32,408 nucleotides of DNA from a candidate division WOR-3 bacterium (lineage in GTDB: Bacteria > Hydrothermota > Tepidihabitantia > Tepidihabitantales > CAIPLT01). Made by a program: the position numbers and the translations under genes. Each line of letters begins with the position of its first letter. The first letter of the stretch is position 1. Below are positions 12,105-32,209 of this stretch, piece after piece. Below the pieces are notes generated by a model, which saw only the letters and a program-made list of their open reading frames with translations, was not told the origin of the DNA and did not search any database. The stretch spans positions 9,241 through 41,648 of the forward strand of contig CBFGJZ010000013.1 in NCBI GenBank assembly GCA_965649215.1, given 5' to 3'.

Positions 12105-14285
12105 ATGAGATTTGCGCTACTCTCTTTTCTCCTATGCGCTTTGGTTTTAGGAGAATCGAATGTAGAGAGTGAACCAACAATAAGGATTGGTCTGGCATTA
12201 TCAGGTGGTGGTGCCTTAGGAATTGCTCATGTCGGTGTTTTAAAAGTTTTGGAAGAGGAAAATATTACAATTAGTTATATTGTTGGTAATAGTATGGGAG
12301 CTTTAATTGGTGGGTTATATGCAGCTGGTTATCACGCAACCAAAATCGAAAGTATTCTGTTAAGTGTTAATTGGGAAAATTTGTTTAGTTCACAAATACC
12401 TTTTGGTGCTCAGTATTTACTAGATCGACAGCAAAAACAGCGATATATTTTTTATTTACAGCATCGTAATTTTGTTCCATTTTTACCAAGTGGAGTGGCG
12501 ATGATTCAAAATGCTGAGTTCTTATTGATGCGGCTTTTATCAGCGATTGAGTATGATACAGATTATGATTTTGACTCTTTAGTGATTCCTTATCGGAACA
12601 TTGCAGTAGATTTACAATCAGGTAAAAGAATTATTTTTAACAAAGGCCGTTTAGCTCAAACCATCCGTGCAAGTATTGCTGTGCCCGGTGTTTTTGCACC
12701 GATTAAAATCGGAGAGTATGAGTTAATTGATGGTGGAATAATTTCTAATTTGCCCGTTGATCTTTTAGAGGAATTTAACCCTGACTTGAAAATAGCTTCG
12801 CTGACAAGTAGAAAGAATCAAATCGAAAGTGGTTCAGTTATTGATGTAATTTTACAGAGTATAAATCTAATTGCGATTGATGATTGGGAAAGACAAAAAC
12901 AAAAGGCAGATTTACGGATCGAGCCAAATGTGGAAAGTTTTAAAAATTCTGATTTTCACAAAGCAAAAGAACTAATTAAAGCAGGTGAGGTTGCAACAAA
13001 AGCAATATTACCCGAACTTAAGTCAAAGATTAAAAATAGAAAGATTGCTAATTTGCGTAAAAAGATAATCAAACGCGACTTAGCATTAATACGATCAATT
13101 ACTTTTGAGGGATTAGAAAGCGTAAATGAGAACATTATTACACAAAGAATGCATCTTCATAAAGGCGATAAATTAAATTTTGAAAAATTGATTGATGACT
13201 TAACCAATATCTACTATTTAAATCTGTTTGATCATGTCGATTATGATGTGCGATTTAACAAAGATAAAGATTCAGTAGATTTAGTAATAAAATTACACGA
13301 AAAAGCTCAAGGATTTTATGCTTTGGGTATGCGCTATGACAGTTTTGATGGTGCAATTTTTGGTTTAAAAGTAGGACAAGGAAATATCAAAAATTCGTGT
13401 GCTGAGATAAGTGCAACATTTTTGTTTGGTAATGATAGAGAAATTCGATTGAGCATACATAATACTCGATTATATGCATTGCCGATCGGATATCGAGTAG
13501 ATGGATATTGGCGAACAACAAAAGGAATATTTAATGATATATCTACAATAGGAGGTAATTTGTATAAGTTCGAAATGCTAGGGGGAGAGGTTGTAACTGA
13601 CTATATTTTGGGTAAAAATGCGTTTTTTAATATTGGTCTGATTGGATATCAAACCAAATATGAACATAGACAAAACCAAGAAGTTATCATCGTACCAATG
13701 TTTGGGGTTGTATATAATAATCTTAACGATCTTTATTTGCCAAATCGTGGTATGAATCATAAATTCAATGTTTTTTATGCGGCCACACAACTTAGGACGG
13801 ATTCTAACTTTTGGAAAGCAAGATATGTTTCTGAATATATCATACCTTTTACAAGTAGATTTACGATGCATCCGAAATTCGAAATTGCATTATCAAATGG
13901 TTATTTAACATACCCGGAAAAATTTAAATATGGGGGATTGAATTTCCTGGGATTTGATAAATTTGAGTTTGTAACGAATCAGGCATTAATAATCAGTAAT
14001 AGTTTTGATTTAATGCTTTTTGAGTTATTTAACTTATCTCGTTATCCATTTTATCTATCTATCTTTACTAATTTAGCGACTTTTGATAAAATTAGTGAAT
14101 TGATTGATAATATTAACTTCAAAGAAAAGTTTTATTGGTCGTTTGGGATTGGGATTAAAACAAATACCCCAATTGGTCCTATGCAATTTGCTTTTAGTTT
14201 GTCCGATTTTAATAAATACTCAGAAAATCGAAAACCACAATTATCATTAAGTATAGGGAGAGAGCTTAGATATCTTGATGGATAA
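12105..14285 (+). CDS. Patatin-like phospholipase with POTRA domain and Omp85-type beta-barrel (PlpD/type Vd-like)
   Basis: Signal peptide MRFALLSFLLCALVLG (start 12105 preferred over 12045); SGGGALG, GNSMG and DGG patatin motifs; POTRA-like segment (ITFEGL...LFDHVDY); aromatic beta-strand C-terminus with TPIGP. Confidence 0.85.
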   Translation: MRFALLSFLLCALVLGESNVESEPTIRIGLALSGGGALGIAHVGVLKVLEEENITISYIVGNSMGALIGGLYAAGYHATKIESILLSVNWENLFSSQIPFGAQYLLDRQQKQRYIFYLQHRNFVPFLPSGVAMIQNAEFLLMRLLSAIEYDTDYDFDSLVIPYRNIAVDLQSGKRIIFNKGRLAQTIRASIAVPGVFAPIKIGEYELIDGGIISNLPVDLLEEFNPDLKIASLTSRKNQIESGSVIDVILQSINLIAIDDWERQKQKADLRIEPNVESFKNSDFHKAKELIKAGEVATKAILPELKSKIKNRKIANLRKKIIKRDLALIRSITFEGLESVNENIITQRMHLHKGDKLNFEKLIDDLTNIYYLNLFDHVDYDVRFNKDKDSVDLVIKLHEKAQGFYALGMRYDSFDGAIFGLKVGQGNIKNSCAEISATFLFGNDREIRLSIHNTRLYALPIGYRVDGYWRTTKGIFNDISTIGGNLYKFEMLGGEVVTDYILGKNAFFNIGLIGYQTKYEHRQNQEVIIVPMFGVVYNNLNDLYLPNRGMNHKFNVFYAATQLRTDSNFWKARYVSEYIIPFTSRFTMHPKFEIALSNGYLTYPEKFKYGGLNFLGFDKFEFVTNQALIISNSFDLMLFELFNLSRYPFYLSIFTNLATFDKISELIDNINFKEKFYWSFGIGIKTNTPIGPMQFAFSLSDFNKYSENRKPQLSLSIGRELRYLDG

Positions 14286-14293: not shown

Positions 14294-14800
14294 ATGTTAA
14301 TTCTTGATTGGTTAATAATAATAATCGCGGCTGGTATTATTGTTGTTCAAACTGCCCGCAGTATTAAAGATTTTGAATATGTATTTTTTGAGATGTTGGG
14401 ATTATTGTTAGCAGCATATTTAGTTACGAAATACTATTATCCTTTATCTTTAAAAACCACAACTAACCCCGCGCTTACTTTATTGGTATTCTATTTGGTT
14501 TGTCTGTTTGTAATGATTATTGTTGCTGATCTTATTGCGAATAAATTACAATTTTCTTTAGCACCGTTTGATCCTTATTTAGGATTTATATTAGCAGTAA
14601 TTAGTGCATGGTCGATATTATATATTTTGCTAAATGTCGTAAAAATTGCTTTCCCCAATGGTTTGATTCTAAAACTAATTGGTAAAGAGATAATAATTTT
14701 TGATATCTGGGATAATTCGCCATTAGCAAATGAAATCTTAAATTTTAATTCATTTAAAGCAGTGGCTAATTTTTTAAACCGAGTTAAATTAAGCGAATGA
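14294..14800 (+). CDS. Membrane protein, CvpA-like
   Basis: Four TM helices, N-terminal ILDWLIIII, DxxLG motif and SPLA near the C-terminus. Confidence 0.55.
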   Translation: MLILDWLIIIIAAGIIVVQTARSIKDFEYVFFEMLGLLLAAYLVTKYYYPLSLKTTTNPALTLLVFYLVCLFVMIIVADLIANKLQFSLAPFDPYLGFILAVISAWSILYILLNVVKIAFPNGLILKLIGKEIIIFDIWDNSPLANEILNFNSFKAVANFLNRVKLSE

Positions 14801-15306
14801 TACATATTTACACGGGTAATGGCAAAGGCAAGACGACCGCAGCAATCGGTCAGGCGATAAGAGCTTTAGGACATAATTATAAAGTGCTGATGATTCAATT
14901 TATGAAAGGCGATCCCGATTACGGGGAAATTAAAACAATCAGCAAAATAAAGAATTTTAAGGTAATTCAGTCAGGACTACCAACATTTGTAGAAAAAGGT
15001 AATCCTACCACAGAGGATATGAAACTCTCCCAAAATGGATTTGCGTTGGCTAAGAAAGCGATCAACAAGAAGAAATACCAAATGATAATTTTAGATGAGA
15101 TAAATGTAGCAATTGATTATGGATTAATTAAATTGTCTGATGTAGTAAAACTTATTAAGAGCTGTCCTAAACAAATTGAACTCATCTTAACTGGTCGCTA
15201 TGCACCTAAAGAACTAATAGAAATAGCAGATTTAGTTAGTGAAATAAAAGAAATAAAACATCCCTATCAAAAGGGATTTGTATCCAGAAAGGGAATAGAT
15301 TATTAA
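14797..15306 (+). CDS. cobO: Cob(I)alamin adenosyltransferase (CobO/BtuR/CobA type)
   Basis: YTGNGKGKTTAA, QFMKG, ILDEIN, LTGR, KHPY...GIDY. Confidence 0.95.
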   Translation: MIHIYTGNGKGKTTAAIGQAIRALGHNYKVLMIQFMKGDPDYGEIKTISKIKNFKVIQSGLPTFVEKGNPTTEDMKLSQNGFALAKKAINKKKYQMIILDEINVAIDYGLIKLSDVVKLIKSCPKQIELILTGRYAPKELIEIADLVSEIKEIKHPYQKGFVSRKGIDY

Positions 15307-15325
15307 AATTAAAACTGCTACAAAT

Positions 15326-16276
15326 ATGATAAATCAACTTATAAAAGATTTTATTAAGAAAGATGAACGGGCTTTAAGTCAGTTAATGACGATCGTTGAG
15401 AATAATGGAGAAGATGCTAAAACAATTTTGAATCGACTTTATCCAAAGCTACCTCGAGCTTGGCGTATTGGTATTACTGGACCACCAGGAGCAGGCAAAA
15501 GCACTTTAGTTGAAAAATTAGCAACGGAATGTGTTAAACATAAATTAACAGTCGGTATTGTCTGTATTGACCCAACCTCGCCATTCAGCGGTGGTGCAAT
15601 TTTAGGCGATCGAGTGCGAATGTCGTCATTATTTTTAGACCCGAAAGTTTTTATTCGTAGTATGGCAACTCGTGGTAGTTTAGGTGGAATTGCCAAGGCA
15701 ACGAAACAACTTTGTGATTTATTAGATGCGTTTGGCAAAGATATTATTATCATTGAAACAATTGGTGTGGGACAAGTTGAATTAGATGTAGCTGGTATCG
15801 CATATACAACGATTGTTGTTTTAGTGCCAGAAGCCGGTGATGCAATTCAAACAATGAAAGCAGGACTAATGGAAATTGCTGATATTTTTGTAGTGAATAA
15901 ATCAGATCGTGAGGGGGCTGACAAATTAGTTATGGAAATCCAATCAATATTAGAAATGCAGGAATTTGTACGCGTACCACCTGTGCTTAAGACAATTGGC
16001 ACTGAGGGAATTGGTATCACAGAATTGTATAAAAATATTCTTGACCATCGCAGTTATTTGGAAAATAGCCAAAAAATAAAAGAACGCTGGCAAGTTATCA
16101 TCAATAACGAAATTAAGGAGTTAGTGCAAGAAGAGGTTGATAAGCAAATCTGGCAGAATTCGAAAATAAGACTTGAATTAGCTAATTTTATTGATAAAAT
16201 AATTGAAGGTAATGAAACACCTTTTAATGCTGCAGATAGAATTATAAAGATGTGGAGTCAAATAAGGAGGAAATAG
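15326..16276 (+). CDS. meaB: Acyl-CoA mutase-associated GTPase chaperone MeaB/ArgK
   Basis: [41 protein letters not shown]. Confidence 0.95.
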
Positions 16277-17883
16277 TGAAGCAAAAAGGTAATCAATTGA
16301 TAACTGATAAAACAATCTCCGGCATACCTATAAAAATCGTATATGTTCCTGCTGATATTAAAGATTTAGATTATGAACAGGATTTAGGTATGCCTGGCCA
16401 TTTTCCATTTACCCGAGGAATTCGAGAAACGATGTATCGTGGACGATTATGGACAATGCGTCAGTTCTCAGGTTTTGGTACGGCGAAAGATACAAATAAA
16501 CGCTACAAATTTCTTTTATCTCATGGGGAAACAGGTTTATCAGTTGCTTTTGATTTTCCTACTCTCTATGGTCGAGACTCGGATGACCCCTTGAGTGAAG
16601 GTGAAGTTGGTAAATGTGGTGTGGCGATATCTTCATTGGCAGATATGGAAACATTATTTGATGGTATTCCTATGGGTGAAGTATCAACTTCAATGACAAT
16701 TAATGGGCCGGCTGCAGTAATCTGGGCATTTTATATTGCGGCTGCTGAAAATCAGGGTGTGAAATCACAGGTTTTACGCGGAACAATTCAAAATGATATT
16801 TTAAAAGAATATATTGCTCAAAAATCATGGTTATTTCCACCGCAACCATCAATGCGGATTATTACCGATATTATGGCGTTTGCAGCAAAAGAAGTACCAA
16901 AATGGAATACAATCTCAATCAGTGGTTATCATATTCGCGAAGCTGGTTCAACTGCAGTACAAGAACTTGCCTTTACATTAAAAGACGGGCTTACTTATGT
17001 TGAAGAAGGTATTAAAGCTGGTTTAGATGTTGATGTATTTGCACCTCGTCTTTCTTTTTTCTTTAATTCGCATTTAGATTTTTTTGAAGAGATTGCTAAA
17101 TATCGTGCAGCCCGAAGAATTTGGGCAAGAGAAATGAGAAATACTTATAAAGCTAAAAAGCCTGAATCATGGTTACTTCGATTCCACACTCAAACTGCAG
17201 GATGTACTTTAACCGCCCAGCAACCTGAAAATAATATTGTTCGAACCGCATTTCAAGCATTAGCCGCAGTTTTAGGTGGCACCCAAAGTTTGCATACTAA
17301 TTCGATGGATGAAACTTGGGCGTTACCTACAGAAAAAGCAGTTTTGATTGCCCTACGAACTCAACAACTAATTGCATATGAAACCAATGTTGCTAATGTG
17401 ATTGACCCATTAGGTGGTTCATATTATCTCGAAGCACTTACAAACAAAATGGAAGAAGAAGCATATCAATATTTTGAAAAGATCGATAAAATGGGCGGTA
17501 TGATTAAAGCAATTGAAAATGGTTATCCACAACGAGAAATTGCCAATGCTGCTTATCAGTACCAACAAGCAGTGGAAAAAAAGCAAAGAATAATTGTTGG
17601 TGTTAATGATTTTGTTGTCCAGGGTGAGAAATTAGAAATCCCGATACTAAAGATTGATCATCGCGTAGCCGAAGAACAACATAAACGATTAAAAATGTTA
17701 AGAAAAAAACGGGATAATAATAAAGTTAAAAAAGCTTTAAAAGAATTGAAACATGTGGCACAAACTAAAGAAAATATTATGTATCCGATCTTAGAAGCAG
17801 CTAAAGCTTATGCGACTTTAGGTGAAATTTGCGGAACTTTAAAAGAAGTGTTTGGTGTTTATAAAGAACCACCGATGTTTTAA
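16276..17883 (+). CDS. icmA: AdoCbl-dependent acyl-CoA mutase large subunit, isobutyryl-CoA mutase type
   Basis: MCM-family motifs (WTMRQxx[25 protein letters not shown]). It has RQF and IAQK where MCM has RQY and Arg. The start is probably GTG 16276, after AAGGAGG. Confidence 0.8.
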
Positions 17884-17899
17884 TTTTAAGGAGGATAGA

Positions 17900-18313
17900 A
17901 TGAACAAAAAGTTAAGGATATTGATTGCCAAACCCGGGTTAGACGGTCATGATCGTGGCGCCAAAGTTGTTGCGCGGGCATTACGTGATGCTGGTTTTGA
18001 GGTCATTTATACCGGTCTACACCAGACCCCAGAAATGATTGTAAATACTGCAATTCAAGAGGATGTTGATGCAATTGGATTATCAATTCTATCCGGTGCT
18101 CATATGACAATTTTTCCTAATGTTTTGAAGTTACTTAAGAAAAAAAGAGCAAGTGATATTCTACTTTTTGGAGGTGGTATAATTCCTGAAGAAGATAAAA
18201 AAGCTTTATATAAATTAGGAGTTGGCAAGTTATTTGGACCTGGTACAGATACTGCCGAAATCGTTGATTATTTAAACAAGTACTTCAAATTAAATAGCGG
18301 AGCAAAACAATGA
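17900..18313 (+). CDS. icmB: Acyl-CoA mutase small (cobalamin-binding) subunit
   Basis: GLDGHDRG (DxHxxG), GLSILSG, GGGII. Start ATG 17900 follows AAGGAGG. Confidence 0.85.
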
Positions 18314-19890: not shown

Positions 19891-21381
19891 ATGGCAAAAA
19901 TATACAAAAATTTTATCAATGGTAAATATCTTCCATCAAGTTCGGGTAAAACTTATAAGAACTTAAATCCTGCTAACACCGATGATGTGGTTGGTATTTT
20001 CCCACTATCCGAAAGCGAAGATGTTAATAAAGCAGTTAGGGCTGCTAAAAATGCCTATGAAAAATGGCGTAAAGTACCAGCACCACAACGGGGTGAAATT
20101 ATTCGCAAAGCAACGGAAATTCTTATTAAACGAAAAGAAGAGTTAGCGCGTATTATGACACGAGAAATGGGTAAAGTTTTAAAAGAAACTCGCGGTGATG
20201 TTCAAGAAGCAATCGATACCGGACTTTATGCTGCGGGCGAAGGTAGAAGGCTATTTTCTTATACGGTGCCTTCGGAATTAAGAAATAAAATGGCATTTGT
20301 AATTCGCCGGCCAATGGGTGTATGGGGAGTTATTTCGCCGTGGAACTTTCCCATGGCAATTCCATCTTGGAAGATCTTTCCTGCATTGTTATGTGGTAAT
20401 ACAGTTGTTTTTAAACCAGCGACTGATACTCCAGCCAGCGCCGGTGAATTTGTTGATGCTTTAGTTGAAGCAGGTATTCCCGATGGCGTTGTTAACATTA
20501 TTTATGGTTCTGGAAGTAAAGTTGGAGAAGCTCTGTTACATCATCCTGATATTTGTGGCATAACCTTTACTGGTTCGTCTCAAATTGGAAAAAGAATTGC
20601 AGAAGTATGCGGTAAGACTTTGAAAAGGTGTTCTTTAGAGTTAGGTGGTAAAAATGCTCAAATTGTAATGGATGACGCAGATTTAGATTTAGCTTTAGAT
20701 GGAGTGCTTTGGGGTGCGTTTGGTACAACTGGTCAACGCTGTACAGCTACCTCGCGTTTAATATTACACGAAAAGGTTTATGATAAGTTTTTAGCGATGT
20801 TAAAAAAACGTACTGAACAGTTAAAGGTAGGAGATGGATTGGACGAAAAAAACGAAGTCGGTCCTTGTGTTTCTGAAGCACAAAGACAAACTGTTCATAG
20901 TTATGTTGAGATTGGTCTCAAAGAGGGTGCAAAATTGTTATGTGGTGGTGAACCATTAACAAAAGGTAAATACGCTAAAGGATTTTTCTATAAACCAACT
21001 ATCTTTGTCGATGTGATACCCGAGATGCGAATTGCTAAAGAGGAAATTTTTGGACCTGTCCTTTCAGTTTTAAAGGTTAAAAATTTGACTGAAGCAATTA
21101 AAGTTTTAAACAACACTCAATATGGTCTATCTTCTTCAATCTATACGAAAGATGTTAATAATGCTTTTAAAGCCATAGAAGATATTGAAGCGGGAATTAC
21201 TTATATCAATGCTCCGACAATTGGTGCAGAATGTCATTTACCATTTGGTGGTGTTAAAGAGACTGGGAATGGACATCGTGAAGGTGGTTGGACGGTATTT
21301 GAAATCTTCTCTGAACTCAAAACCGTGTATGTTGACTATTCAGGTTCGCTTCAAAAGGCGCAGATAGATACCTGGGACTAA
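19891..21381 (+). CDS. NAD(P)-dependent aldehyde dehydrogenase
   Basis: PWNFP, FTGS, LELGGKN, GQRCTA, EEIFGP, PFGG; AAGGAG SD. Confidence 0.95.
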   Translation: MAKIYKNFINGKYLPSSSGKTYKNLNPANTDDVVGIFPLSESEDVNKAVRAAKNAYEKWRKVPAPQRGEIIRKATEILIKRKEELARIMTREMGKVLKETRGDVQEAIDTGLYAAGEGRRLFSYTVPSELRNKMAFVIRRPMGVWGVISPWNFPMAIPSWKIFPALLCGNTVVFKPATDTPASAGEFVDALVEAGIPDGVVNIIYGSGSKVGEALLHHPDICGITFTGSSQIGKRIAEVCGKTLKRCSLELGGKNAQIVMDDADLDLALDGVLWGAFGTTGQRCTATSRLILHEKVYDKFLAMLKKRTEQLKVGDGLDEKNEVGPCVSEAQRQTVHSYVEIGLKEGAKLLCGGEPLTKGKYAKGFFYKPTIFVDVIPEMRIAKEEIFGPVLSVLKVKNLTEAIKVLNNTQYGLSSSIYTKDVNNAFKAIEDIEAGITYINAPTIGAECHLPFGGVKETGNGHREGGWTVFEIFSELKTVYVDYSGSLQKAQIDTWD

Positions 21382-21461: not shown

Positions 21462-22772
21462 CTAGTCAAGATTAGTTAACTCTTTAAAATGTTCTTTGAA
21501 GATACGATAGTACATCAGTTCTTCTTTGCTTGACAACTGCCAGCCGCAGGGTAAAACAGATTCTTTGTTAAAATCTGGATCAGAAATATTTTTACGAGCG
21601 TACTCAGAGATTAATTCACCAATGCCAGCACCCTGCCAGAATTTTGCTTTGGTTCGATTTACGACAGAGTCGGGTAATAAATTATCCAGCGCCTGGCGTA
21701 ATATCCATTTTTCAATATTATTACGGAGTTTATATTCAGTTGGAATTTGTAATGCATATTCGACAACCGCTGGGGCAACAAACGGAACCTGCGCAGTCAA
21801 GCCAAATGCCGACGCACAGCGGTCAACTCTTTGTAAAGTAGTATTATGAAGACGGTTCATAATATCAACCAATTCATCGGCCAAAAAGAGCGGATTGAGA
21901 GTTTTTAAGTATTCGTAGCCGGCAAATAGTTCATCTGCGCCTTCGCCAGAAAAAACTTCGGAAACATACTGAGCCGCAGTTTTTGCGGCTAAGTAATTGG
22001 TGATACTGGAACGAACTAATAAGGCGTCAAATGATTCGAGATGATAGATAACTTCAGGTAAAGCTTTAAGCAAATCTTGAAAAGTGACAATTACTTCGTG
22101 GTGATGTAATTTCTGTCCAGATTGTAAATTAGATTTAAGATAATCAACAACAATCCGGGCAAATTTGATATCGGGTGCGTCTTTTAAACCGGTGGCAAAG
22201 GTGTGGATAGTTTTCGCATATTTACTCAAGAAACTGACAATTGCGCTCGAATCAAGCCCGCCAGAAAGCCAGGCACCAATCTGGTTGCCGATAATTTTAT
22301 TTTCAATCTCATGACATAAAAGCATGCGTAATTCATAAGCAATAGTTTCTGGTAAGCGGTTAAAAGAATCCTGTTTTTGATAATGTTTTTGTGCAATAAA
22401 GGTATTGTCTTGATAAAGATAACCTGGTGGAAATTCTTTGATATTGTGAGTGATATTTAACAGTGCTTTGACTTCTGATGCAAAACAGAGTGCGCCGTTG
22501 ATTTTACAATAATATAATGGAGTTATGCCTAAAGGGTCTCGCCTTAGTAACAGTTTATTGTCTTTAATTATAATCGGTATTAATTTATTCAAGTCGTTCT
22601 GTCGCTCACCGAGAATATTTGACTCGAAATTGGCATAGACAATACTGAGTGTGGCATTGTCGGTTTGAAATATTTCATTACTAAATTTGCCCCGATGTCG
22701 AATCTTTTGTAACATTTGCTGCACAAGTTCATTTTGATTAATTCGAAAAATACCTGCAATACCATAAGACAT
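21462..22772 (-). CDS. Asparagine synthetase-like ATP-dependent amide/lactam ligase with a degenerate glutaminase domain
   Basis: Synthetase motifs LSGGLDSS, SGEGADELFAGY, RVDR, KWILR. The N-terminus MSYGIAG lacks the catalytic Cys and the NGEIYN motif is absent. Confidence 0.85.
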   Translation of the reverse strand: MSYGIAGIFRINQNELVQQMLQKIRHRGKFSNEIFQTDNATLSIVYANFESNILGERQNDLNKLIPIIIKDNKLLLRRDPLGITPLYYCKINGALCFASEVKALLNITHNIKEFPPGYLYQDNTFIAQKHYQKQDSFNRLPETIAYELRMLLCHEIENKIIGNQIGAWLSGGLDSSAIVSFLSKYAKTIHTFATGLKDAPDIKFARIVVDYLKSNLQSGQKLHHHEVIVTFQDLLKALPEVIYHLESFDALLVRSSITNYLAAKTAAQYVSEVFSGEGADELFAGYEYLKTLNPLFLADELVDIMNRLHNTTLQRVDRCASAFGLTAQVPFVAPAVVEYALQIPTEYKLRNNIEKWILRQALDNLLPDSVVNRTKAKFWQGAGIGELISEYARKNISDPDFNKESVLPCGWQLSSKEELMYYRIFKEHFKELTNLD

Positions 22773-24415
22773 TATTTGTTGCCTTTGTGAAGTAGTGTTT
22801 TTAATCTTTGTGTTTCGGTCATTGGTTTACCAGTGCGGGGATTGATAACAAGATATTTGCCATTAATTGGTGCAGTAATAATTGTTCCTTGAGCAACCTT
22901 GGAATCGACCAGGTGTGGTGCATCAAGGATTCCATTTTTAACCGCCGTGTATAAAACATCCGGATTGGTCAATGGGTCGGCTACTTTTTTATTTATCTCT
23001 TTTATTGCATTCAGTATTAACTTTGCTTGTTGAATCAGTTCCTGTTTTCGTTTTTGGATAATGCGGTCAGAGATAATGTTTGGTAACTGTTTTAATGCTA
23101 ATCGAATTGCACCATGAGTGATTTTAGCGCTCTCAATAATCTCTTTGGCAGTAGCATTGTAATTGGCTTCGCAATAACCGACAACATGGACGATATGCGG
23201 TTTGAGCATCATACCGACCAAGACGGACGCGGCTAAATGTCCTTTGGCAATATCTGGTTCAGGCGGCATACTCCGTAAACCAGTTCTAATTTGACGAAAA
23301 CTGTTAAAATTACTGTCGTGCAAAGATTCAATCATTTCGATTTTCGCAAGCATTTTTGCCAAGTCCATTTGGGGACTGGTTTCAGGCGGAGTATTGAGCA
23401 TATATTGGGATACATAATTTCTGACACCCAGTTTTTTCGCATTATACGCGGCTAAATAAGCAGTTGCCACAGCCAATGCATCATGACTGTCACGCAAACT
23501 CCATTGATGGGCATCATTAACTTCAATTGGGATATTATGTTTTGCATACCATTTAATCGTTGCCTGATTTTCTTTTATGGCGTTGAGTAAAGTTCGATTT
23601 GAGCGTCGGTCAAGTTCATTATACCAGAATAAAGGCACAGCGCCCCAGGCAATCCTGATAGTTTTAACCAACATTTTTGCCCAATCGATTAAATGGTCAG
23701 TGCCGGCATAACATCTGAGTAAGGGATAATTACCACAACGGGTTGCTTGATAGATTGCCTTTAAATCAGACGCTTTACGGATTGGCACACCACCAGCACC
23801 GCTGCCAGATTTTGGCATCTGATTTGGCGTGAAAAAGTATTGCTGGGCATTCTGGTCTGGAGCAATACTGATAATATCCAATACTTTTGCCAAAGCGATT
23901 TTTTTGGCATCAATCACAGTCTGCTTGACGGTTTTTAAACCGAGATGATGTCTTAACAGGGGATAAGGATAGTTTTGTTTAATACGCTCTACTAAGGTTT
24001 GGGCATAATCTGTTTTTGCGTTGTTTCCTGATTTTGCTTTAAGATAATTGATTATGGTTTGAATTGATTCAGCGCCAGAAAAGACTGCTTCAAACATCTT
24101 AGTCTCTCGAGCAACTTTAGCGACCGAAGTCGTACCGCCAAAAGCAAGGCGAGTATTTTCAAGATGATATTTACGCAGTTCTTTTTTTAAGTCATTAAAT
24201 AAATCTTGAGCAGTTTCTGGCGATAGACGATAACTGACCACGGCTAAGTCAGGTTGTTTATCTTTAATTGCAGATACGAATTTTTTTATGCCGATGGCTG
24301 GACCTAAGAATTCCGTATCATACCCATGGTTTTGTGCCAAGCGTAGAAAATTTATAATACCGGCAACATGCACGCAATTACCAATACAAGCCCCTAAAAT
24401 TTTATTGCCTTGCAC
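22772..24415 (-). CDS. Cobalamin-binding protein with a C-terminal glutamate-mutase-like catalytic domain; function unknown
   Basis: N-terminal B12 Rossmann domain: GNCVHVAG (variant DxHxxG), LG, VSYRL (SxL-like), FGG. The ~400 aa C-terminal domain resembles glutamate mutase epsilon by eye (low-identity inference). Confidence 0.72.
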   Translation of the reverse strand: MQGNKILGACIGNCVHVAGIINFLRLAQNHGYDTEFLGPAIGIKKFVSAIKDKQPDLAVVSYRLSPETAQDLFNDLKKELRKYHLENTRLAFGGTTSVAKVARETKMFEAVFSGAESIQTIINYLKAKSGNNAKTDYAQTLVERIKQNYPYPLLRHHLGLKTVKQTVIDAKKIALAKVLDIISIAPDQNAQQYFFTPNQMPKSGSGAGGVPIRKASDLKAIYQATRCGNYPLLRCYAGTDHLIDWAKMLVKTIRIAWGAVPLFWYNELDRRSNRTLLNAIKENQATIKWYAKHNIPIEVNDAHQWSLRDSHDALAVATAYLAAYNAKKLGVRNYVSQYMLNTPPETSPQMDLAKMLAKIEMIESLHDSNFNSFRQIRTGLRSMPPEPDIAKGHLAASVLVGMMLKPHIVHVVGYCEANYNATAKEIIESAKITHGAIRLALKQLPNIISDRIIQKRKQELIQQAKLILNAIKEINKKVADPLTNPDVLYTAVKNGILDAPHLVDSKVAQGTIITAPINGKYLVINPRTGKPMTETQRLKTLLHKGNK

Positions 24416-25983
24416 TATCGCCTACCTTCTTCAACAAAACGACGGATTTGCCGAACCGTCATACCATCTAAGCCGAGTTTGTTAATAGTTCGACCTTCTG
24501 CCCAGTAATTCCGATTATGCAAGACATTGGCAAGTTGAATGATTGATTTCATGGTCGGTACTTTAACCCCCAGATATTCTCCCAATGATGCGATTGGCAC
24601 CAGGCTGGTTGGTACATCTTCAGCAATATAGCGATGGTCAATTGTATTTGGCGCTAAAATACCGTGGTAATTATAATTTGCCTGAATTGCTTCATATAGA
24701 TTATCACCAGCAACGCCATATGCCTGATAAATCCATTCTCGCGCAGTCAACACCCTGATACCCAATGCTTCAGCGACTTTGACCCGCTCGGCATCGAGCG
24801 CTTCCAAGACCAGCGACACCGAAGGGCTGGCACCTTCGTGGTAATAACTAAAATTGCCTTTTTCATTTTCAATCCAGGCAGTATTAAGAACAGTCAAGGC
24901 AGGATGAAAGATTGCGCCAATATTACTCAGACCAGTTTTCAAGACATTATCACCAGCAACAAACTGATGAAATGTATTTTTCAGTGATGCTAAAACATCA
25001 GGCAGGTGAAATGCGGGCAGGGTTGCGATAGGCACTGCATTTTTAATTCCAAAAATCCGAACCTGACCCGGATTTGTAATTCTTGATGCATAGAGCAGGG
25101 TTTCAGCTTCAGCCAGAAAATAATATTTATTGATTTTTAACTGACGGAGCATTTCAGCAAAAACCAGAGCGCCACCAGTCCGACCCGGATTTAACAAAAC
25201 TATTTGACCATCGGTAAGGTGTGGTCCTAAAATTCGAGCCATTTCAATATGACCCAAAGCCGGCACCACAACCATGACGATATCAACATCTGCTAATGCC
25301 TGCTTGACATCGGTTGTAACCAAATTTAACTTTGCAGTGCCGTTAATCTCACCGGTAACTTCAATTTCATTACTCGCCTGAATGGTTCGAATCCGGTCTG
25401 CACTGCGGTTATACAGGTTGACTTTACGACCGGTCAAAGCCAGATGTGCTGCCATTGCTAAACCGCCATTACCAGCACCAACAATACAGATAGTCTGAGA
25501 GTCTTCAGCCGGTTCAATTTGCCCGAGCGGTAATTCCTGCTCTTTAATAAAATTCAATATCCCGGCGGGTGATTCTGTTTTTAATAAAGTTTCTGTAAAA
25601 AAAGGTTCGTGAAAAAGATGCGCAAGACGACTTAAAATTTTAAGCTGAAAATTATGTCCGATTAAACGATTAATCACCAGAAAAATTATGTTTGCTGGTT
25701 TATCATCAATGGCATTAAAATCAATACCCGATTTACTGATGCCAATGGCGATGATTGGTTGATGCACGGCATTGGTGCAGGTATGCGGAATTGCAATACC
25801 CTGACCAATGCCAAAAGTGCCTTTGCGTTCAGTCGCCTGCAGGTCTTTAACAGCCAGTTCAGGATTACTTAATCGCCCGGCATTTTTCAATGCTTCGGTT
25901 AATTCTTGATAAACTTCTAATCTGGTGGTGCTTTTTAAATCAAGTATAATTGCATTTTCGACAATGAATTTGTGAATAAACAT
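24415..25983 (-). CDS. PTS EIIA domain fused to an NAD/NADP octopine/nopaline (opine) dehydrogenase
   Basis: N-terminal GIGQGIAIPH (EIIA-2); C-terminal GAGNGG, NPGRTGG, NIGAIFHP, LDAER, HRYIAEDVP. Start ATG 25983 follows a GAGGTG SD (the track uses 25992). Confidence 0.88.
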   Translation of the reverse strand: MFIHKFIVENAIILDLKSTTRLEVYQELTEALKNAGRLSNPELAVKDLQATERKGTFGIGQGIAIPHTCTNAVHQPIIAIGISKSGIDFNAIDDKPANIIFLVINRLIGHNFQLKILSRLAHLFHEPFFTETLLKTESPAGILNFIKEQELPLGQIEPAEDSQTICIVGAGNGGLAMAAHLALTGRKVNLYNRSADRIRTIQASNEIEVTGEINGTAKLNLVTTDVKQALADVDIVMVVVPALGHIEMARILGPHLTDGQIVLLNPGRTGGALVFAEMLRQLKINKYYFLAEAETLLYASRITNPGQVRIFGIKNAVPIATLPAFHLPDVLASLKNTFHQFVAGDNVLKTGLSNIGAIFHPALTVLNTAWIENEKGNFSYYHEGASPSVSLVLEALDAERVKVAEALGIRVLTAREWIYQAYGVAGDNLYEAIQANYNYHGILAPNTIDHRYIAEDVPTSLVPIASLGEYLGVKVPTMKSIIQLANVLHNRNYWAEGRTINKLGLDGMTVRQIRRFVEEGRR

Positions 25984-26085
25984 TGAAATCACCTCACAAT
26001 CTTTACAAGTTTAGGTTAATTATACAATATTAGTCGCCCCATCAATAATTTCCTTGCCGCAAATTGTATAAGAACTGTTTATTAA

Positions 26086-26114
26086 AGTATAATGAAAATT
26101 GTTAATATGGTCAA
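26086..26114 (-). promoter_or_regulatory. sigma70-type promoter of the opine dehydrogenase operon
   Basis: TTGACC-17 nt-TATACT about 100 nt upstream of ATG 25983. Confidence 0.6.
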
Positions 26115-26185: not shown

Positions 26186-27028
26186 CTATTCAATCACCGA
26201 TTTGATTTTGATTCGTTTGTCTTCTTGGGTGAGATATGCCATGGCAATTTTAGGGTCGTGTTCAAAGAAAGAGACCCAGTTTTCAGCTACGGCTTGGGTT
26301 AAAAGTTTCTGTTTATGTTCCATGGTTTCTAAGGGAAATAAGTCATAAGCCATGAGATAGGGAAGACTAATATGTGAAACTGTCGGAATCAGATCACCCC
26401 AATAGATTAAAGTTTGATTTTCTGAAGAAATTTTAACCACTTGATGGCCAAAAGTATGTCCTGCGGTCTTCATAACTTCAATGCCATCAATTATTTGTTC
26501 CTGTTCATTAACTAAACAGAGCTGATTATTTTCTTTTAGTGGTAGAAAATTTTCTTTAAGATAACTGGCTTTAGATCGCCGATCTGGATTATTGGCTGCT
26601 TCCCATTCGCTTTTCTGGATATAATATTTAGCATGTGGAAAAGTCGGTACTACTTTGCCATTTGCATCAACTTTTGTATTACCACCACAATGGTCAAAAT
26701 GAAGGTGGGTATTTATGACAATATTGATATCAGTTACTTGATAGCCAAGTTTTTGTAAAGATTGTTCAACTGTCGTATGATGATTTACTTGATAGATATT
26801 ATTGAATTTTTCCTGTCCTTTATCACCGATACCCGTATCAATAAGAACAAGTTCTTTACCGGTATTGACAAGACAGGTTCTTAAAGCCAATAAAATACGA
26901 TTATTTTCGTCAGCAGGATTAGTTTGGTGCCATAATACTTTTGGGACGACACCAAACATGGCACCGCCGTCGAGTTTAAATAAACCATCCAGCAGTGGAT
27001 AAATCTCAAATTTTCCTAATTTCAACAC
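26186..27028 (-). CDS. Metallo-beta-lactamase-fold hydrolase (YtnP-like)
   Basis: LDGGAMFGVVPK, THLHFDHCGG, GHTFGH, GDL, FEHD. Confidence 0.9.
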   Translation of the reverse strand: MLKLGKFEIYPLLDGLFKLDGGAMFGVVPKVLWHQTNPADENNRILLALRTCLVNTGKELVLIDTGIGDKGQEKFNNIYQVNHHTTVEQSLQKLGYQVTDINIVINTHLHFDHCGGNTKVDANGKVVPTFPHAKYYIQKSEWEAANNPDRRSKASYLKENFLPLKENNQLCLVNEQEQIIDGIEVMKTAGHTFGHQVVKISSENQTLIYWGDLIPTVSHISLPYLMAYDLFPLETMEHKQKLLTQAVAENWVSFFEHDPKIAMAYLTQEDKRIKIKSVIE

Positions 27029-27742: not shown

Positions 27743-29698
27743 ATGGAAAATTTTAGTTTGAAAACATTTTTTTCACCTGATTTAATTTTTATTAATGATC
27801 AATTAGAAAATCAGGAAGCGGTTTTTCATTTCATTGCCGATAAATTACAAGAGAAAAATCTAATTGATAACACTTCAAGGAACGAAGTTATTGAATTACT
27901 AAAAAATCGTGAAATTAGCACTTCAACAGGTATTGGTAATGGCATTGCTGTACCCCATATAATTTTACCAAATATTAATAAGATTTTTGGTTGTGTTGTT
28001 AAGCTTGACAAAGGAATTGATTGGAAGGCTATTGATGGACAGAGCGTAAAATTAATTGTCTTTCTTTTTGCGCCGGCGAGTCAGCGTCAATTTTATTTGC
28101 AAGTTTTAGCAATGATTGCGCAGCATTTAAATTCGCCTTTGGTCTTAAATAAACTCTTAAAAACCAAAAAGACAAGTGTTATCTATCAAATAATTACAGA
28201 GGGCTATCAAGGTAATTTTTTTGAAAGGTATCGTCGCGCAATTTACTTTTTAGGCGGACTGATTTTCTTTTTTATCCTTGCGAAATTTATCTTTTCTTAT
28301 GTTAAAATACCAGATTTAGAAATCTATCAAAAACTTGATTATTTAAAGTTTAATGAAACGGTTTGGATTAATAAAGAAATCATTTCGATGATGCTTTTCT
28401 TTAGTATGGTTTTGGGTACCTTACTATTCTTCCGTTTCCGAGTTGCTTTTGGAGCAGCGGCATTATGTCTTTTATTGCTTGCGGGCGTGATGGATATTGA
28501 GACAACGGTCAAATTTATGTCAATACCGACAATACTTTTTATCATTTCGGTAATGGTTTTAGTAAAATGGTTTGAAGCAAAAGGAGTCTTTAAATACTTA
28601 GTAGTGCGAGCATTAAAATATTTTCATAATTCGCCGATGCTGTTATTTGCGGCGTTGATGTTTTTTTCGGCTATCTTAGCAGGGTTGATTGACGAAGTTT
28701 CAGCAATTCTAATCACTTTTGGCATTGCGATGGAAATCGCTCGACATACAAAAATTAGCATTATTCCTTATCTCTTAGGATTAGTAATGGCAACTAATAT
28801 TGGTAGCGCGATGACTTTAATTGGTAATCCGATTGGTATCTATCTTGCTTTTGCAGGTAAACTTACTTTCTTTGATTTCTTGAAAAACTCAACCATAATT
28901 TCTCTATTCAGTGTTATTATCATAATATTAATTGTGTTATTTTTCTTTCGTAAAAAAATAAAAAGTGAAGGGAAAGTTGATATTACCGAAATTGAAAATA
29001 ATATTGAAGTGCCCGAGCGAAAAGAACTTTTAATCGCAACCATTGTTTTTGCGATTTTCGTTATATTTATTGTGTTACATTCTTGGTTAGAGCATTTACT
29101 ACGAGTTGAAGAACGAACCGTACTTTTAGCAACCGTACTTGGCATAGTCGGTTTTATTGTTTTACGAGAAGAAGAGCGAGGAAGGTATTTTATTGAAAAA
29201 GGACCAGATTGGTGGACTGTGCTTTATTTTATGTTCTTATTTGCCAATGCTGCGTGTTTGGAATATACAGGTGTTACGGCTAAATTGGCGCATCTTTTAG
29301 TAGCAGCGGCACATAATTTACCCTTAGGATTTTTAGGTCATCTTAAAGAAAGCACAGGTATTATGTCTCTTATGTTGTGGAGTTCAGGAATTTTATCAGG
29401 ATTTGTTGATAACTTACCGATTGTTGCTGCTTTAGTACCCGTGGTCAAAGATTTAACTGCGCAAGGTATTTTTGGTTCTAATATCTTCTGGTGGGGACTT
29501 TTATTAGGTGGTTGTTTTGGTGGCAATCTAACTATGATTGGCTCAACCGCAAATTTAGTGGCAATTGGTTTATACGAAAAATCGTTTCGTAAGAAATTTC
29601 ACTTTACAGAATGGATTAAAATTGGTATTATCGTGACCATCGTATCCCTTATCATGGCAAACTTAATATTATTTGTAAAATTATTATTAATTAAATAA
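27743..29698 (+). CDS. PTS EIIA domain fused to an ArsB/NhaD/CitM (ion transporter superfamily) permease
   Basis: N-terminal NREISTSTGIGNGIAVPH; C-terminal multi-TM domain with ATNIGSAMTLIGNP, SGFVDNLP and GGNLTMIGSTAN. Confidence 0.88.
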   Translation: MENFSLKTFFSPDLIFINDQLENQEAVFHFIADKLQEKNLIDNTSRNEVIELLKNREISTSTGIGNGIAVPHIILPNINKIFGCVVKLDKGIDWKAIDGQSVKLIVFLFAPASQRQFYLQVLAMIAQHLNSPLVLNKLLKTKKTSVIYQIITEGYQGNFFERYRRAIYFLGGLIFFFILAKFIFSYVKIPDLEIYQKLDYLKFNETVWINKEIISMMLFFSMVLGTLLFFRFRVAFGAAALCLLLLAGVMDIETTVKFMSIPTILFIISVMVLVKWFEAKGVFKYLVVRALKYFHNSPMLLFAALMFFSAILAGLIDEVSAILITFGIAMEIARHTKISIIPYLLGLVMATNIGSAMTLIGNPIGIYLAFAGKLTFFDFLKNSTIISLFSVIIIILIVLFFFRKKIKSEGKVDITEIENNIEVPERKELLIATIVFAIFVIFIVLHSWLEHLLRVEERTVLLATVLGIVGFIVLREEERGRYFIEKGPDWWTVLYFMFLFANAACLEYTGVTAKLAHLLVAAAHNLPLGFLGHLKESTGIMSLMLWSSGILSGFVDNLPIVAALVPVVKDLTAQGIFGSNIFWWGLLLGGCFGGNLTMIGSTANLVAIGLYEKSFRKKFHFTEWIKIGIIVTIVSLIMANLILFVKLLLIK

Positions 29699-30075: not shown

Positions 30076-31269
30076 ATGAAAAAAAGCAAAGAATTAATTG
30101 AAATCAGTAAGCAATACAGTGCTAATAATTATCATCCGTTGCCTGTGGTTTTATCACACGGACAAGGGATTTGGGTTTATGATGTGGAGGGCAATAAATA
30201 TTTAGATATGCTGTCATCATATTCAGCACTAAATCAAGGTCATTGCCATCCGAAAATATTAGAAACATTAGTTGAGCAAGCCAATAGACTAACTTTAACA
30301 TCACGAGCATTTCATAATGATAAGTTTGGTCCGTTTTGTAAATATCTTTGTGAAGTTACTAAAAAAGATAAAGTCTTACTTATGAATAGCGGGGCTGAAG
30401 CAGTCGAAACCGCAATAAAAGCTGCCCGCAAATGGGGTTATCTAAAAAAGAAAGTTAAAGAAAATCAAGCAGAGATTATTGTCTGTGAAAATAACTTTCA
30501 TGGTCGCACTACAACGATTATCAGTTTCTCATCAGAAGCGCAGTATCGATTTGGTTTTGGACCATTCACACCGGGTTTTAAGATGATTCCATATGATGAT
30601 CTATCTGCCTTAGCTGGAGCAATTAATGAAAATACAGTTGGTTTTCTATTTGAACCAATTCAAGGCGAAGGTGGGGTAGTAGTTCCGAAAGATGGATATT
30701 TAAGAGGTGCAAAAGAGATTTGTCAAAAAGCCAATGTCCTATTCATTGATGATGAGATTCAAACAGGCTTAGGGAGAACAGGTCGTTTGTTTGCTTATGA
30801 ATATGAAGATGCAACGCCGGATATTTTAATACTTGGTAAAGCCTTAGGTGGTGGTTTTTATCCAATCTCCGCAATCTGCGCAGATGATGAGATTATGGAT
30901 GTCTTTACACCTGGCGACCATGGTTCAACTTTTGGTGGTAATCCTTTAGCTTGTGCAGTTGCTCATACTGCTTTACAAGTTATAATTAAAGAACAATTAG
31001 CGGATCAGGCTGAAGCATTGGGTAAATACTTTATGAATAAATTACGCTTAATAAAATCACCTTACATTAAAGAAATTAGAGGTAAAGGTTTATTGATTGG
31101 GGTAGTGCTCAATCAAAAAGCACGGCCATTCTGCGAAACATTAATGCAAGAGGGGATATTAGCCAAAGAAACGCATGATTATGTAATTCGTTTTGCCCCA
31201 CCTTTAATTATTGAAAAAGAAGACATTGACTGGGCGTTAGAAAGAATAAAGAAAGTATTATCATCATAA
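30076..31269 (+). CDS. rocD: Ornithine--oxo-acid transaminase
   Basis: ANNYHPLP, YSALNQGHCHP, LTLTSRAF, EPIQGEGG, DEIQTGLGRTG, GKALGGG, HGSTFGGNPL. Confidence 0.95.
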   Translation: MKKSKELIEISKQYSANNYHPLPVVLSHGQGIWVYDVEGNKYLDMLSSYSALNQGHCHPKILETLVEQANRLTLTSRAFHNDKFGPFCKYLCEVTKKDKVLLMNSGAEAVETAIKAARKWGYLKKKVKENQAEIIVCENNFHGRTTTIISFSSEAQYRFGFGPFTPGFKMIPYDDLSALAGAINENTVGFLFEPIQGEGGVVVPKDGYLRGAKEICQKANVLFIDDEIQTGLGRTGRLFAYEYEDATPDILILGKALGGGFYPISAICADDEIMDVFTPGDHGSTFGGNPLACAVAHTALQVIIKEQLADQAEALGKYFMNKLRLIKSPYIKEIRGKGLLIGVVLNQKARPFCETLMQEGILAKETHDYVIRFAPPLIIEKEDIDWALERIKKVLSS

Positions 31270-31366: not shown

Positions 31367-32209
31367 ATGCGGATATTAGTGACAGGTGCTCGTGGAATGT
31401 TGGGCACTGATTTATGTGTTTTATTAAAACAAAAACAAATTTCACCTATTGAACTTGATCTGCCAAAGTTTGATATTACCAATATCAACCAAGCAATTAA
31501 TACTATCAAACAACATAAACCAGAAATTATAATCCATCTTGCGGCTTTTACAGATGTTGATAGAGCCGAAGAAAACAAAGCAGATGCTTATGCTGTAAAT
31601 ACGCAAGGAACTTGGGCGGTTGCATTAGCCGCTCAGGAATGCAAAGCAAAATTACTTTATATCAGTACGGATTATGTCTTTGACGGCAGTAAAAACAAAC
31701 CCTATCATGAAAACGATCAACCCAATCCAATAAATTACTATGGTCTAACTAAACTACTCGGTGAGCGAGCAATTACTCAACACTTAAAACAATATTATAT
31801 TGTGCGAACCGCCTGGTTATTTGGAAAAAATGGCAATAATTTTGTTAAGACGATAATAAAACTTGCTCAAGAAAAAGACGATTTAGAAGTAGTCAATGAT
31901 CAAATTGGTTCACCAACTTATACCAAAGATTTAAGTCAAGCAATCTACAACCTTATTCAAACCGATAAATATGGCATTTACCATATTACCAATGCAGGAT
32001 ATTGTTCTTGGTATGAATTTGCTTGTGAGATTATAAAACAAGCAGAATTAAATACCCAAATAACACCAGTCAGTTCTGATAAGATTAATCGTAAAGCAAA
32101 AAGACCCGCTTATTCAGTGCTGGACAACGGCAAGTTTGAAAAAGTCTGTCAAGACAAACTCAGGAGTTGGCAGGAAGCATTAAAAGAATATCTACAATCT
32201 ATTAAATAA
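31367..32209 (+). CDS. rfbD: dTDP-4-dehydrorhamnose reductase
   Basis: GARGMLG, AAFTDVD, STDYVFDG, YGLTK, DQIGSPT, RPAYS. Confidence 0.95.
   Translation: MRILVTGARGMLGTDLCVLLKQKQISPIELDLPKFDITNINQAINTIKQHKPEIIIHLAAFTDVDRAEENKADAYAVNTQGTWAVALAAQECKAKLLYISTDYVFDGSKNKPYHENDQPNPINYYGLTKLLGERAITQHLKQYYIVRTAWLFGKNGNNFVKTIIKLAQEKDDLEVVNDQIGSPTYTKDLSQAIYNLIQTDKYGIYHITNAGYCSWYEFACEIIKQAELNTQITPVSSDKINRKAKRPAYSVLDNGKFEKVCQDKLRSWQEALKEYLQSIK

Follow-up and report, generated by a model that had tools for sequence, protein, structure and literature searches.

To our knowledge, only a handful of adenosylcobalamin (AdoCbl)-dependent carbon-skeleton mutases are known, and the number of those that are not coenzyme A (CoA) mutases has hardly grown in decades. 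In the glutamate mutase of Clostridium cochlearium, glutamate is presumably bound by Arg66, Arg100, Arg149, and Glu171, and the lysine that binds pyridoxal phosphate (PLP) in the aminomutases, which we take to be Lys629 of OraE, presumably lies in a four-residue insertion, KHGG. For the N-(1-D-carboxyethyl)-L-norvaline dehydrogenase of Arthrobacter (Protein Data Bank, PDB, entry 1bg6), an opine dehydrogenase, we take the catalytic residues to be His202, Arg292, and Asp297. An amidotransferase of the AsnB family finishes a small stress solute in the AsnO and Ngg pathway to N-acetylglutaminylglutamine amide (NAGGN), a pathway with no B12 enzyme and no opine dehydrogenase, in which AsnO keeps its glutaminase. 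Of the regulators relevant here, PtsN acts on K+ transport, and riboswitches for cyclic di-AMP (c-di-AMP) usually gate ion and osmolyte genes. Here, we examine a 32,408-nucleotide stretch of DNA, referred to as the window, from a candidate division WOR-3 bacterium (contig CBFGJZ010000013.1 of assembly GCA_965649215.1), in which three minus-strand genes encode an opine dehydrogenase fused to a phosphotransferase system (PTS) EIIA domain (gene 1), a single-chain candidate AdoCbl mutase (gene 2), and a predicted AsnB-like amide ligase (gene 3; Table 1).

An initial reading of the window, made from the DNA letters and their open reading frames alone (the sequence-only reading), knew of no described pathway with this combination of genes, and a literature search, with most subscription journals outside its reach, likewise found no characterization of one. 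A genome paper from 2009 flagged the pair of dehydrogenase and B12 genes as unexplained; the cultured carriers that it names include Halothermothrix orenii (Hore_09740/09750), Petrotoga, and Thermosipho.

Conservation of the genes was assessed in a sample of 104 loci, comprising 24 from species genomes and the best 80 of 571 metagenome hits. The dehydrogenase gene adjoins the B12 gene in 102 of these loci (24/24 from genomes and 78/80 from metagenomes), and in the remaining two metagenome loci, the contig breaks off at the B12 gene. The dehydrogenase leads in 91 loci and the B12 gene in 11, and a median of 39 nt separates the two. Ligase genes were counted only where both flanks of the pair extend for at least 1500 nt, as they do in 50 loci; 24 of these complete loci carry an asparagine synthetase (AsnS)-like gene, 7 carry an ATP-grasp ligase gene, 19 carry neither, and none carries both. 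Within the trio, the order is nearly always dehydrogenase, B12 protein, and ligase. The survey that the sequence-only reading had proposed thus bears out its claim that the trio forms a conserved unit, as seen in the 24 loci with an AsnS-like gene. Overall, we conclude that the dehydrogenase and the B12 protein are the core of the system, that an ATP-dependent amide-forming enzyme is its frequent and interchangeable third member, and that the AsnB-like enzyme is the commonest tailoring partner of the core.

Homologues of gene 2 are numerous, with at least 7873 retrieved in one search and 715 clusters at 50% identity, and the carriers of the pair, as labeled, include Thermotogae, Clostridia, Acetothermia, Planctomycetia, Bacteriovoracaceae, and two archaea. 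In its own phylum, gene 2 was found in 2 of 151 sampled genomes, its own genome included, and in none of the four genomes of its family. The whole neighborhood recurs in the same order in a Latescibacterota-labeled genome (locus L019), with protein identities of 72 to 91%. G+C content is 0.41 over positions 23001 to 26000, which cover the trio, versus 0.30 to 0.37 across most of the window; the patchy distribution and the raised G+C are compatible with a possible lateral acquisition.

The family calls of the sequence-only reading agree with Pfam. Gene 1 belongs to the Octopine_DH domain family (PF02317, 168.2 bits versus a cut-off of 30), gene 3 has an Asn_synthase domain (199.1 bits), and the only Pfam match of gene 2 is to the B12-binding domain, at 31.5 bits and just below the cut-off of 32.1. 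A structural model of gene 2 was built with AlphaFold2 on 33 homologues (mean pLDDT of 92.1). In this model, the predicted barrel of residues 136 to 540 matches glutamate mutase E (GlmE; 1cb7_B) with a Z-score of 33.0 and a root mean square deviation of 2.8 over 368 residues, followed by lysine 5,6-aminomutase (Z of 31.1), ornithine 4,5-aminomutase (Z of 27.8), and CoA mutases (Z of about 20); methyltransferase and DHPS-type barrels score 14 to 16. Foldseek concurs, returning 6h9e_B at an E value of 5.9e-17. Residues 1 to 127 match the corrinoid proteins 1y80 and 4jgi with a Z-score of 15.8 (VIA-align), and 4jgi is also the best match of the B12 domain at the sequence level (E value of 7.1e-06). 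The cobalamin motif of this domain reads CxHxxG (Cys14, His16, and Gly19), not DxHxxG, and Cys14 and His16 are at least 90% conserved.

The sequence-only reading had called gene 2 glutamate-mutase-like, which holds for its fold; at the sequence level, the likeness is invisible, and the glutamate-binding residues are replaced. Specifically, PF06368 gave no match in the gene 2 protein at E values of ≤0.01, and there is no membership in TIGR01503, as NCBIfam returned the S subunit only, with 22.7 bits versus a cut-off of 110. PDB sequence searches with the family profile and with the L009 homologue produced matches to the B12 domain alone, never to GlmE. A few relatives of gene 2 score 27 to 30 bits for PF06368. 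A genus-level search for a true GlmE found none in six scored genomes, with three others unscored. For comparison of the pockets, four true GlmE sequences were taken from Clostridia genomes, where 20 of 300 genomes exceeded the TIGR01503 cut-off, and were aligned by hhalign with 33 family members over 381 columns, the same span as the structural alignment. The columns of GlmE Arg66, Arg100, Arg149, and Glu171, invariant in all four GlmE, hold His157, Gln191, Tyr236, and Pro261 in gene 2, and two conserved arginines of gene 2 (Arg155 and Arg234) stand two residues earlier on the same strands. The anchors of the alignment, given as GlmE/gene 2, are Asp89/Asp180, Asp96/Asp187, Asn143-Pro145/Asn229-Pro231, Gly151-Thr152/Gly238-Thr239, and Trp167/Trp257. 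A true glutamate mutase was rejected as the identity of gene 2 on account of the replaced residues and the lack of PF06368 and TIGR01503 membership. A PLP-dependent aminomutase was ruled out as well, since the four-residue insertion with the PLP lysine is absent; KHGG of ornithine aminomutase 3kow falls in a gap of both the family profile and the L009 homologue. On the strength of the model, gene 2 is predicted to belong to the AdoCbl isomerase superfamily and to share the fold of GlmE, without being a glutamate mutase or a PLP aminomutase. A further subfamily related to gene 2, of about 600 to 630 amino acids, shares 32 to 37% identity. Prediction of a complex between the mutase and the dehydrogenase domain gave a score of 0.00, which bears neither way on their interaction.

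CobO, encoded 7 kb from the trio, makes AdoCbl and is common to the trio and the neighboring methylmalonyl-CoA mutase genes; in L003, L004, and L045, the cobO gene directly adjoins the pair. The genome encodes only three clear B12-domain proteins, each of them in the window (methylmalonyl-CoA mutase, a B12 radical-SAM enzyme, and gene 2), and methylmalonyl-CoA mutase is the only AdoCbl isomerase of the genome besides gene 2. As a separate observation, the three B12-domain proteins, with the small subunit as the one from methylmalonyl-CoA mutase, lie together with CobO and MeaB (5791 to 7098, 14797 to 18313, and 22772 to 24415), giving this part of the window the look of a B12 island. MutL/GlmL, the accessory protein of glutamate mutase, is fused to members of a more distant mutase subfamily (P0154, P0155, and P0159; 826 to 1266 amino acids), and another homologue, P0139 (863 amino acids), is a mutase fused to an ATP-grasp domain of the glutathione synthetase/RimK type. 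The genome also encodes a stand-alone MutL/GlmL of 600 amino acids (422 bits; L131:7187-8989 on contig C1, between glycine-cleavage genes and serS), which lies far from any mutase gene and may serve to reactivate the orphan mutase. The idea that MutL is an obligatory partner was rejected, as the protein was found in only two of five other carriers.

Gene 1 had been read as an opine dehydrogenase, a call that both Pfam and the match to 1bg6 uphold but that overlooked the N-terminal EIIA domain. Residues 164 to 521 align with 1bg6 from end to end (E value of 7.9e-78), and His363, Arg454, and Asp459 align with His202, Arg292, and Asp297 of that enzyme; among 35 homologues, His363 and Arg454 are kept in all and Asp459 in 34. 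The EIIA domain is PtsN-like, with the nitrogen-regulatory IIA protein 2a0j as its best solved match (E value of 2e-11) and the histidine motif aligned. The phosphorylatable histidine lies in GIAIPH (codon at 25783 to 25785) and is His70 or His67 when counted from GTG 25992 or ATG 25983, respectively. The same fusion occurs in 6 of the 104 loci as well as in this window, all among the closest relatives, and the histidine is kept in 6/6 fused homologues inspected; over its whole length, the fusion is 88% identical in L019 and 54 to 68% identical in L003, L004, L045, and L046. HPr and EI are encoded in the genome, adjacent to each other on contig C4. The genome holds five EIIA_2 domains, of which two are free and the others are attached to the dehydrogenase, to a CitMHS transporter, and to an amino acid permease, which suggests that PTS-type phosphorylation widely controls solute traffic in this organism. 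The permease, of the APC type with the EIIA_2 domain at its C terminus, was seen at L030:70-1905 (+). The CitMHS transporter, encoded in the window and divergent from the trio, is possibly associated with it, through a weak link.

Gene 3 contains the PP-loop SGGLDS at residues 170 to 175 (22248 to 22265), aligned to that of AsnB. The protein begins MSYGIAG, with Ser2 where the glutaminase cysteine is expected, and its glutaminase domain is vestigial, with about 60 residues missing (AsnB 47 to 130 versus 44 to 71 here). Its match to Escherichia coli AsnB has an E value of 3.2e-46 over residues 72 to 429, versus 4.6e-14 for CarA and 3.6e-12 for beta-lactam synthetase; the AsnB equivalog score of 322 bits lies below the cut-off of 499, and NCBIfam reports a weak match to the NAGGN amidotransferase (127.8 bits versus a cut-off of 570). 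The family of gene 3, with proteins of about 445 amino acids, is large and has at least 120 clusters at 50% identity or more. Among 39 AsnS-like genes adjacent to the pair, 5 start with MCG or VCG, 33 do not, and 1 has an unreadable start; the glutaminase cysteine is thus kept in 5/38 relatives at the same position. Because this cysteine can only deliver ammonia, amidation is the simplest reaction for all of them to share. Judged from these residues and from its closeness to AsnB, gene 3 likelier amidates a carboxylate than closes a lactam, and the cysteine-less forms, gene 3 included, would use free ammonia.

To place the pair in a physiological context, riboswitches were sought in the loci where at least 400 nt precede the pair (81 loci, of which the 36 shortest were scanned), and 875 neighboring open reading frames were clustered to find recurrent families. 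In 4 of the 36 loci, a c-di-AMP riboswitch (93 to 104 bits) lies immediately upstream of the dehydrogenase gene on the same strand. Recurrent neighbors are CBS-domain regulators (seven loci), Ddl-like ligases (eight), and Na+/H+ exchangers (five different loci); MscS channels (three loci), CitMHS transporters (3/104), and MarC (two) also recur near the pair. The riboswitches, the ion-handling neighbors, and the EIIA fusion, each a minority observation, point to ion or osmotic homeostasis. Of the alternative products listed by the sequence-only reading, an osmolyte is the best supported.

We tentatively favor, at a level that stops short of calling it probable, a biosynthetic route to an amidated small solute with a link to ion or osmotic stress, which in this organism would be under the control of the fused EIIA domain. 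In this route, the opine dehydrogenase would reductively join an amino acid with a 2-oxo acid, probably pyruvate, and the AdoCbl enzyme would rearrange the carbon skeleton of the opine or of its amino acid precursor. The AsnB-like enzyme would then, as an optional last tailoring step, adenylate one carboxylate and convert it to a carboxamide with free ammonia. The ligase is placed after the core because the conserved barrel residues of the mutase stay the same whether or not a locus has a ligase and because the ligase gene is usually the last. The product would most likely serve ion or osmotic homeostasis. In this organism, the switch would probably act on the protein itself, through the phosphorylation state of the PtsN-like EIIA domain on the dehydrogenase, and in other lineages through the c-di-AMP riboswitch. 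The analysis shows how the genes are built, their folds, the catalytic residues of the dehydrogenase, the conservation of pair and trio, and the regulatory elements. We infer the substrates, the order of the steps, the amide product, and the physiological role. A fully specified version, in which gene 2 would represent a new class of AdoCbl carbon-skeleton mutase acting on a secondary-amine (opine-type) di- or tricarboxylate in place of a free amino acid or a CoA ester, and the dehydrogenase and an ammonia-dependent ligase would complete a hitherto undescribed amidated, branched imino-acid compatible solute under a c-di-AMP switch in some lineages and PTS-Ntr/EIIA control here, is unlikely.

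Several observations weigh against this biosynthetic route. The enzyme 1bg6 is reported to prefer hydrophobic amino acids, a poor fit to a glutamate-type substrate, and CxHxxG is atypical for AdoCbl isomerases. The pocket comparison comes from an hhalign match with a probability of just 41% (E value of 2.8e-4) that is anchored by conserved motifs. MutL was found in only two of the five other pair-bearing genomes. Riboswitches precede the pair in just 4/36 loci, ion-handling neighbors occur in a handful each, and the window itself shows no sign of salt stress beyond the EIIA domains and the transporter. In L007, L008, and L014, the pairs are part of glycan or flagellin-glycosylation clusters, where a different use is suggested. 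Finally, in one Clostridia genome (G115), a dehydrogenase gene (54% identical) and an AsnS-like gene are adjacent, with no such mutase beside them. In G115, L168:1315-8866 (-) carries, in this order, the dehydrogenase, a 497-amino-acid cysteine-less AsnS-like gene, a pair of TldD/PmbA genes, and a glycoside hydrolase gene (Alpha-amylase and CBM_48 domains), and the sole relative of gene 2, 35% identical, lies on a different contig. A search of 399 scored Clostridia genomes for the short AsnS-like form away from the pair returned ordinary AsnB-sized genes, and of 30 such loci examined, that of G115 was the only one adjoining a dehydrogenase. Separately, a true glutamate mutase E gene was seen about 22 kb from this G115 cluster on the same contig, and TldD/PmbA genes follow the pair in three metagenome loci.

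Two other explanations keep gene 2 as a mutase but give it a different role. A catabolic module, in which the mutase would rearrange an amino acid or opine-like compound and the dehydrogenase would run oxidatively, as in the B12-dependent fermentation of lysine and ornithine, where a dehydrogenase acts after a mutase, is unlikely. It would suit carriers that are mostly anaerobes (as labeled), a barrel nearly as close to the lysine and ornithine aminomutases as to GlmE (Z of 31.1 and 27.8), and a window in which the trio converges on genes for methylmalonyl-CoA mutase, a carboxyltransferase, and an aldehyde dehydrogenase, with an ornithine aminotransferase gene 4 kb from the trio. However, an ATP-consuming amide ligase is attached in 31/50 complete loci and fused to one homologue, no lyase, CoA-transferase, or thiolase recurs among the annotated neighbors, the insertion with the aminomutase PLP lysine (as we take that residue to be) is missing, and the usual targets of c-di-AMP riboswitches are ion and osmolyte genes. 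It is distinctly unlikely that the genes tailor glycans, with the pair making an unusual amino-acid-like acid and the ligase coupling it as an amide to a sugar of a flagellin glycan or surface polysaccharide. The pairs of L007, L008, and L014 do stand with an ATP-grasp ligase among genes for DegT aminotransferases, RmlA/RmlB-type enzymes, Wzy, a flippase, a sugar transferase, and a Maf/MptE-like protein; a UDP-glucose dehydrogenase gene is directly upstream in L011, L015, and L021; and the window holds RmlD (31367 to 32209) and a GT2 glycosyltransferase. Such contexts, however, account for just 6/104 loci, and RmlD here is 5 kb off on the other strand; gene 3 is of the ammonia-using AsnB type, and a glycan does not suit the riboswitches and ion-transport genes found around other loci.

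The remaining explanations concern the chemistry of single genes. That gene 2 is not a radical AdoCbl isomerase at all, but acts with the dehydrogenase as a corrinoid protein for methyl transfer or as a B12-binding regulator, is very unlikely. Its CxHxxG motif in place of DxHxxG, several database names that call relatives "methionine synthase," the corrinoid protein 4jgi as best sequence match of its B12 domain, and the barrel Z-scores of 14 to 16 to methyltransferase and DHPS types can be cited for this view; AdoCbl isomerase barrels, in contrast, score far higher (33.0, 31.1, 27.8, and about 20), relatives are fused to MutL, and an adenosyltransferase gene adjoins the pair in three loci. The sequence-only reading had also proposed that gene 3, an AsnS homologue without the N-terminal cysteine, might turn an N-substituted methylaspartate into a beta-lactam or another lactam, with an antibiotic-like product, or that the opine is a metallophore, which we find barely credible. 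Gene 3 does share the missing cysteine with beta-lactam synthetase and CarA and matches both, and a metallo-beta-lactamase (MBL)-fold gene lies upstream (26186 to 27028). Against these, gene 3 matches AsnB 30 orders of magnitude better, five relatives in the same position keep the ammonia-delivering cysteine, and the pair can do without the ligase or have an ATP-grasp ligase instead (19/50 and 7/50 complete loci). No CEAS-, CarB-, or CarC-like genes, nicotianamine-synthase-like genes, or metal-transport genes were present among the annotated neighbors; the MBL-fold protein resembles YtnP-type lactonases, below the cut-off (239 versus 425 bits), and a spread over many phyla and archaea is unlike that of a specialized antibiotic. 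The beta-lactam and metallophore readings were thus rejected, on the closeness to AsnB, the kept cysteine, the dispensable ligase, and the lack of matching neighbors.

The layout of the trio was examined at its junctions and start. As the sequence-only reading had described, the three minus-strand genes overlap by one nucleotide at each stop and start, as borne out by the list of open reading frames and by the junctions themselves (cgaTAGTGcaa between genes 1 and 2 and aaaTAATGtct between genes 2 and 3, where the stop and next start share one base). Its choice of ATG 25983 as the start of gene 1 is likewise favored, because GAGGTG stands 6 nt before this codon; GTG 25992 falls within the gene's own ribosome site. 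Of its "one promoter and SD," the Shine-Dalgarno sequence can be read directly, while the promoter is a plausible site only. Promoter-like sites in the region numbered 19, versus 14.6 +/- 4.2 in shuffles, and since they are not enriched, the trio promoter is only a candidate. No terminator-like site was found in a search after 21462, and an Rfam scan of the window returned no match to a riboswitch or other RNA family.

Several other genes of the window deserve mention. An aldehyde dehydrogenase gene (19891 to 21381, +) converges on the trio, an arrangement syntenic in L019; the protein is nearest to alpha-ketoglutaric semialdehyde/2,5-dioxovalerate dehydrogenases (575.6 bits versus a cut-off of 770), and its product would be 2-oxoglutarate. 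An ornithine--oxo-acid transaminase (30076 to 31269, +; TIGR01885, 559 bits, above the cut-off) is 62.8% identical to the product of the gene directly downstream of the mutase gene in the Thermotogaceae locus L011. Such a gene stands beside the pair in only 1/104 loci, and an ornithine aminotransferase near the pair may be a coincidence or a supply step. Ribosomal protein L6 (27068 to 27637, -; 186.8 bits, above the equivalog cut-off) is encoded by the only copy found in the genome, which is 95% complete; the gene stands alone, outside any ribosomal-protein operon, between the MBL-fold gene and the EIIA-CitMHS transporter gene, as it does in L019. A patatin phospholipase fused to POTRA and Omp85 domains (12045 to 14285, +) is presumably a PlpD-like outer-membrane lipase. 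At 954 to 1442 (-), an open reading frame of 162 amino acids matches the asparaginase N-terminal domain only and may be a truncated gene.

Table 1. Positions of the trio, its domains and signals, and associated genes in the window
Feature	Position	Strand	Remarks
Gene 1	24415..25983	-	EIIA(Ntr)-like domain and opine dehydrogenase fusion; open reading frame 24415-25992, 525 aa from GTG
PTS_EIIA_2 (PtsN-like) domain	25540..25968	-	Pfam, 96.6 bits; residues 9-151
Opine dehydrogenase domain (Rossmann N-domain and Octopine_DH helical domain)	24430..25503	-	1bg6 alignment
Gene 2	22772..24415	-	547 aa, GTG start; B12-binding domain and predicted glutamate-mutase-E-like TIM barrel, single chain
Rossmann-type B12-binding domain	24035..24415	-	Residues 1-127; GG at 93-94; CxHxxG
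TIM-barrel catalytic domain (predicted)	22796..24010	-	Residues 136-540; glutamate mutase E fold
Gene 3	21462..22772	-	436 aa, ATG start; short asparagine-synthetase-like adenylating amide ligase (predicted)
Shine-Dalgarno GAGGTG	25990..25995	-	Read from sequence; 6 nt ahead of ATG 25983
Promoter-like TTGACC-17-TATACT (candidate)	26086..26114	-	10/12 matches; ~100 nt upstream of gene 1
CitMHS-type anion transporter with N-terminal EIIA_2	27743..29698	+	PTS_EIIA_2, 109.1 bits; CitMHS, 161.5 bits; divergent
CobO, ATP:corrinoid adenosyltransferase	14797..15306	+	214.7 bits; 7 kb from trio

The candidate AdoCbl mutase family described here is large, occurs in archaea as well as in many bacterial phyla, and always works alongside the same kind of enzyme. 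Solving its chemistry would extend the list of B12 reactions and probably that of stress metabolites in anaerobes, and would show why c-di-AMP riboswitches recurrently target these genes. In the EIIA fusion, nature has wired a PTS-Ntr signaling domain directly onto a metabolic enzyme, so that the debated outputs of that system become testable in one polypeptide.

Compared with known systems, gene 1 shares with 1bg6 the full-length alignment and the catalytic His/Arg/Asp set, and differs in its additional N-terminal EIIA domain and in having a B12 enzyme as partner. With PtsN/EIIA-Ntr (2a0j, 4gqx, and 1a6j) it has in common the same domain with a phosphorylatable histidine motif; there the domain is a free regulator of about 150 to 160 amino acids, whereas here it is covalently fused to its presumed target enzyme. 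Gene 2 and glutamate mutase GlmS/GlmE (EC 5.4.99.1; C. cochlearium 1cb7 and 6h9e) both combine a Rossmann B12 domain with a TIM barrel, and MutL/GlmL, the accessory protein of GlmS/GlmE, occurs fused to relatives of gene 2. Gene 2 differs in being a single chain with the B12 domain N-terminal, in having CxHxxG in place of DxHxxG, and in its partner, which is an opine dehydrogenase, not methylaspartase. Gene 3 has the same synthetase domain with PP-loop as AsnB (1ct9), without the cysteine nucleophile and with a shortened glutaminase. The N-terminal cysteine is absent from gene 3, beta-lactam synthetase (1jgt), and CarA (1q15) alike, but gene 3 is far more distant from the latter two than from AsnB. 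As in the NAGGN pathway described above, gene 3 is proposed to amidate a carboxylate, and it is the B12 enzyme and the opine dehydrogenase that set the trio apart.

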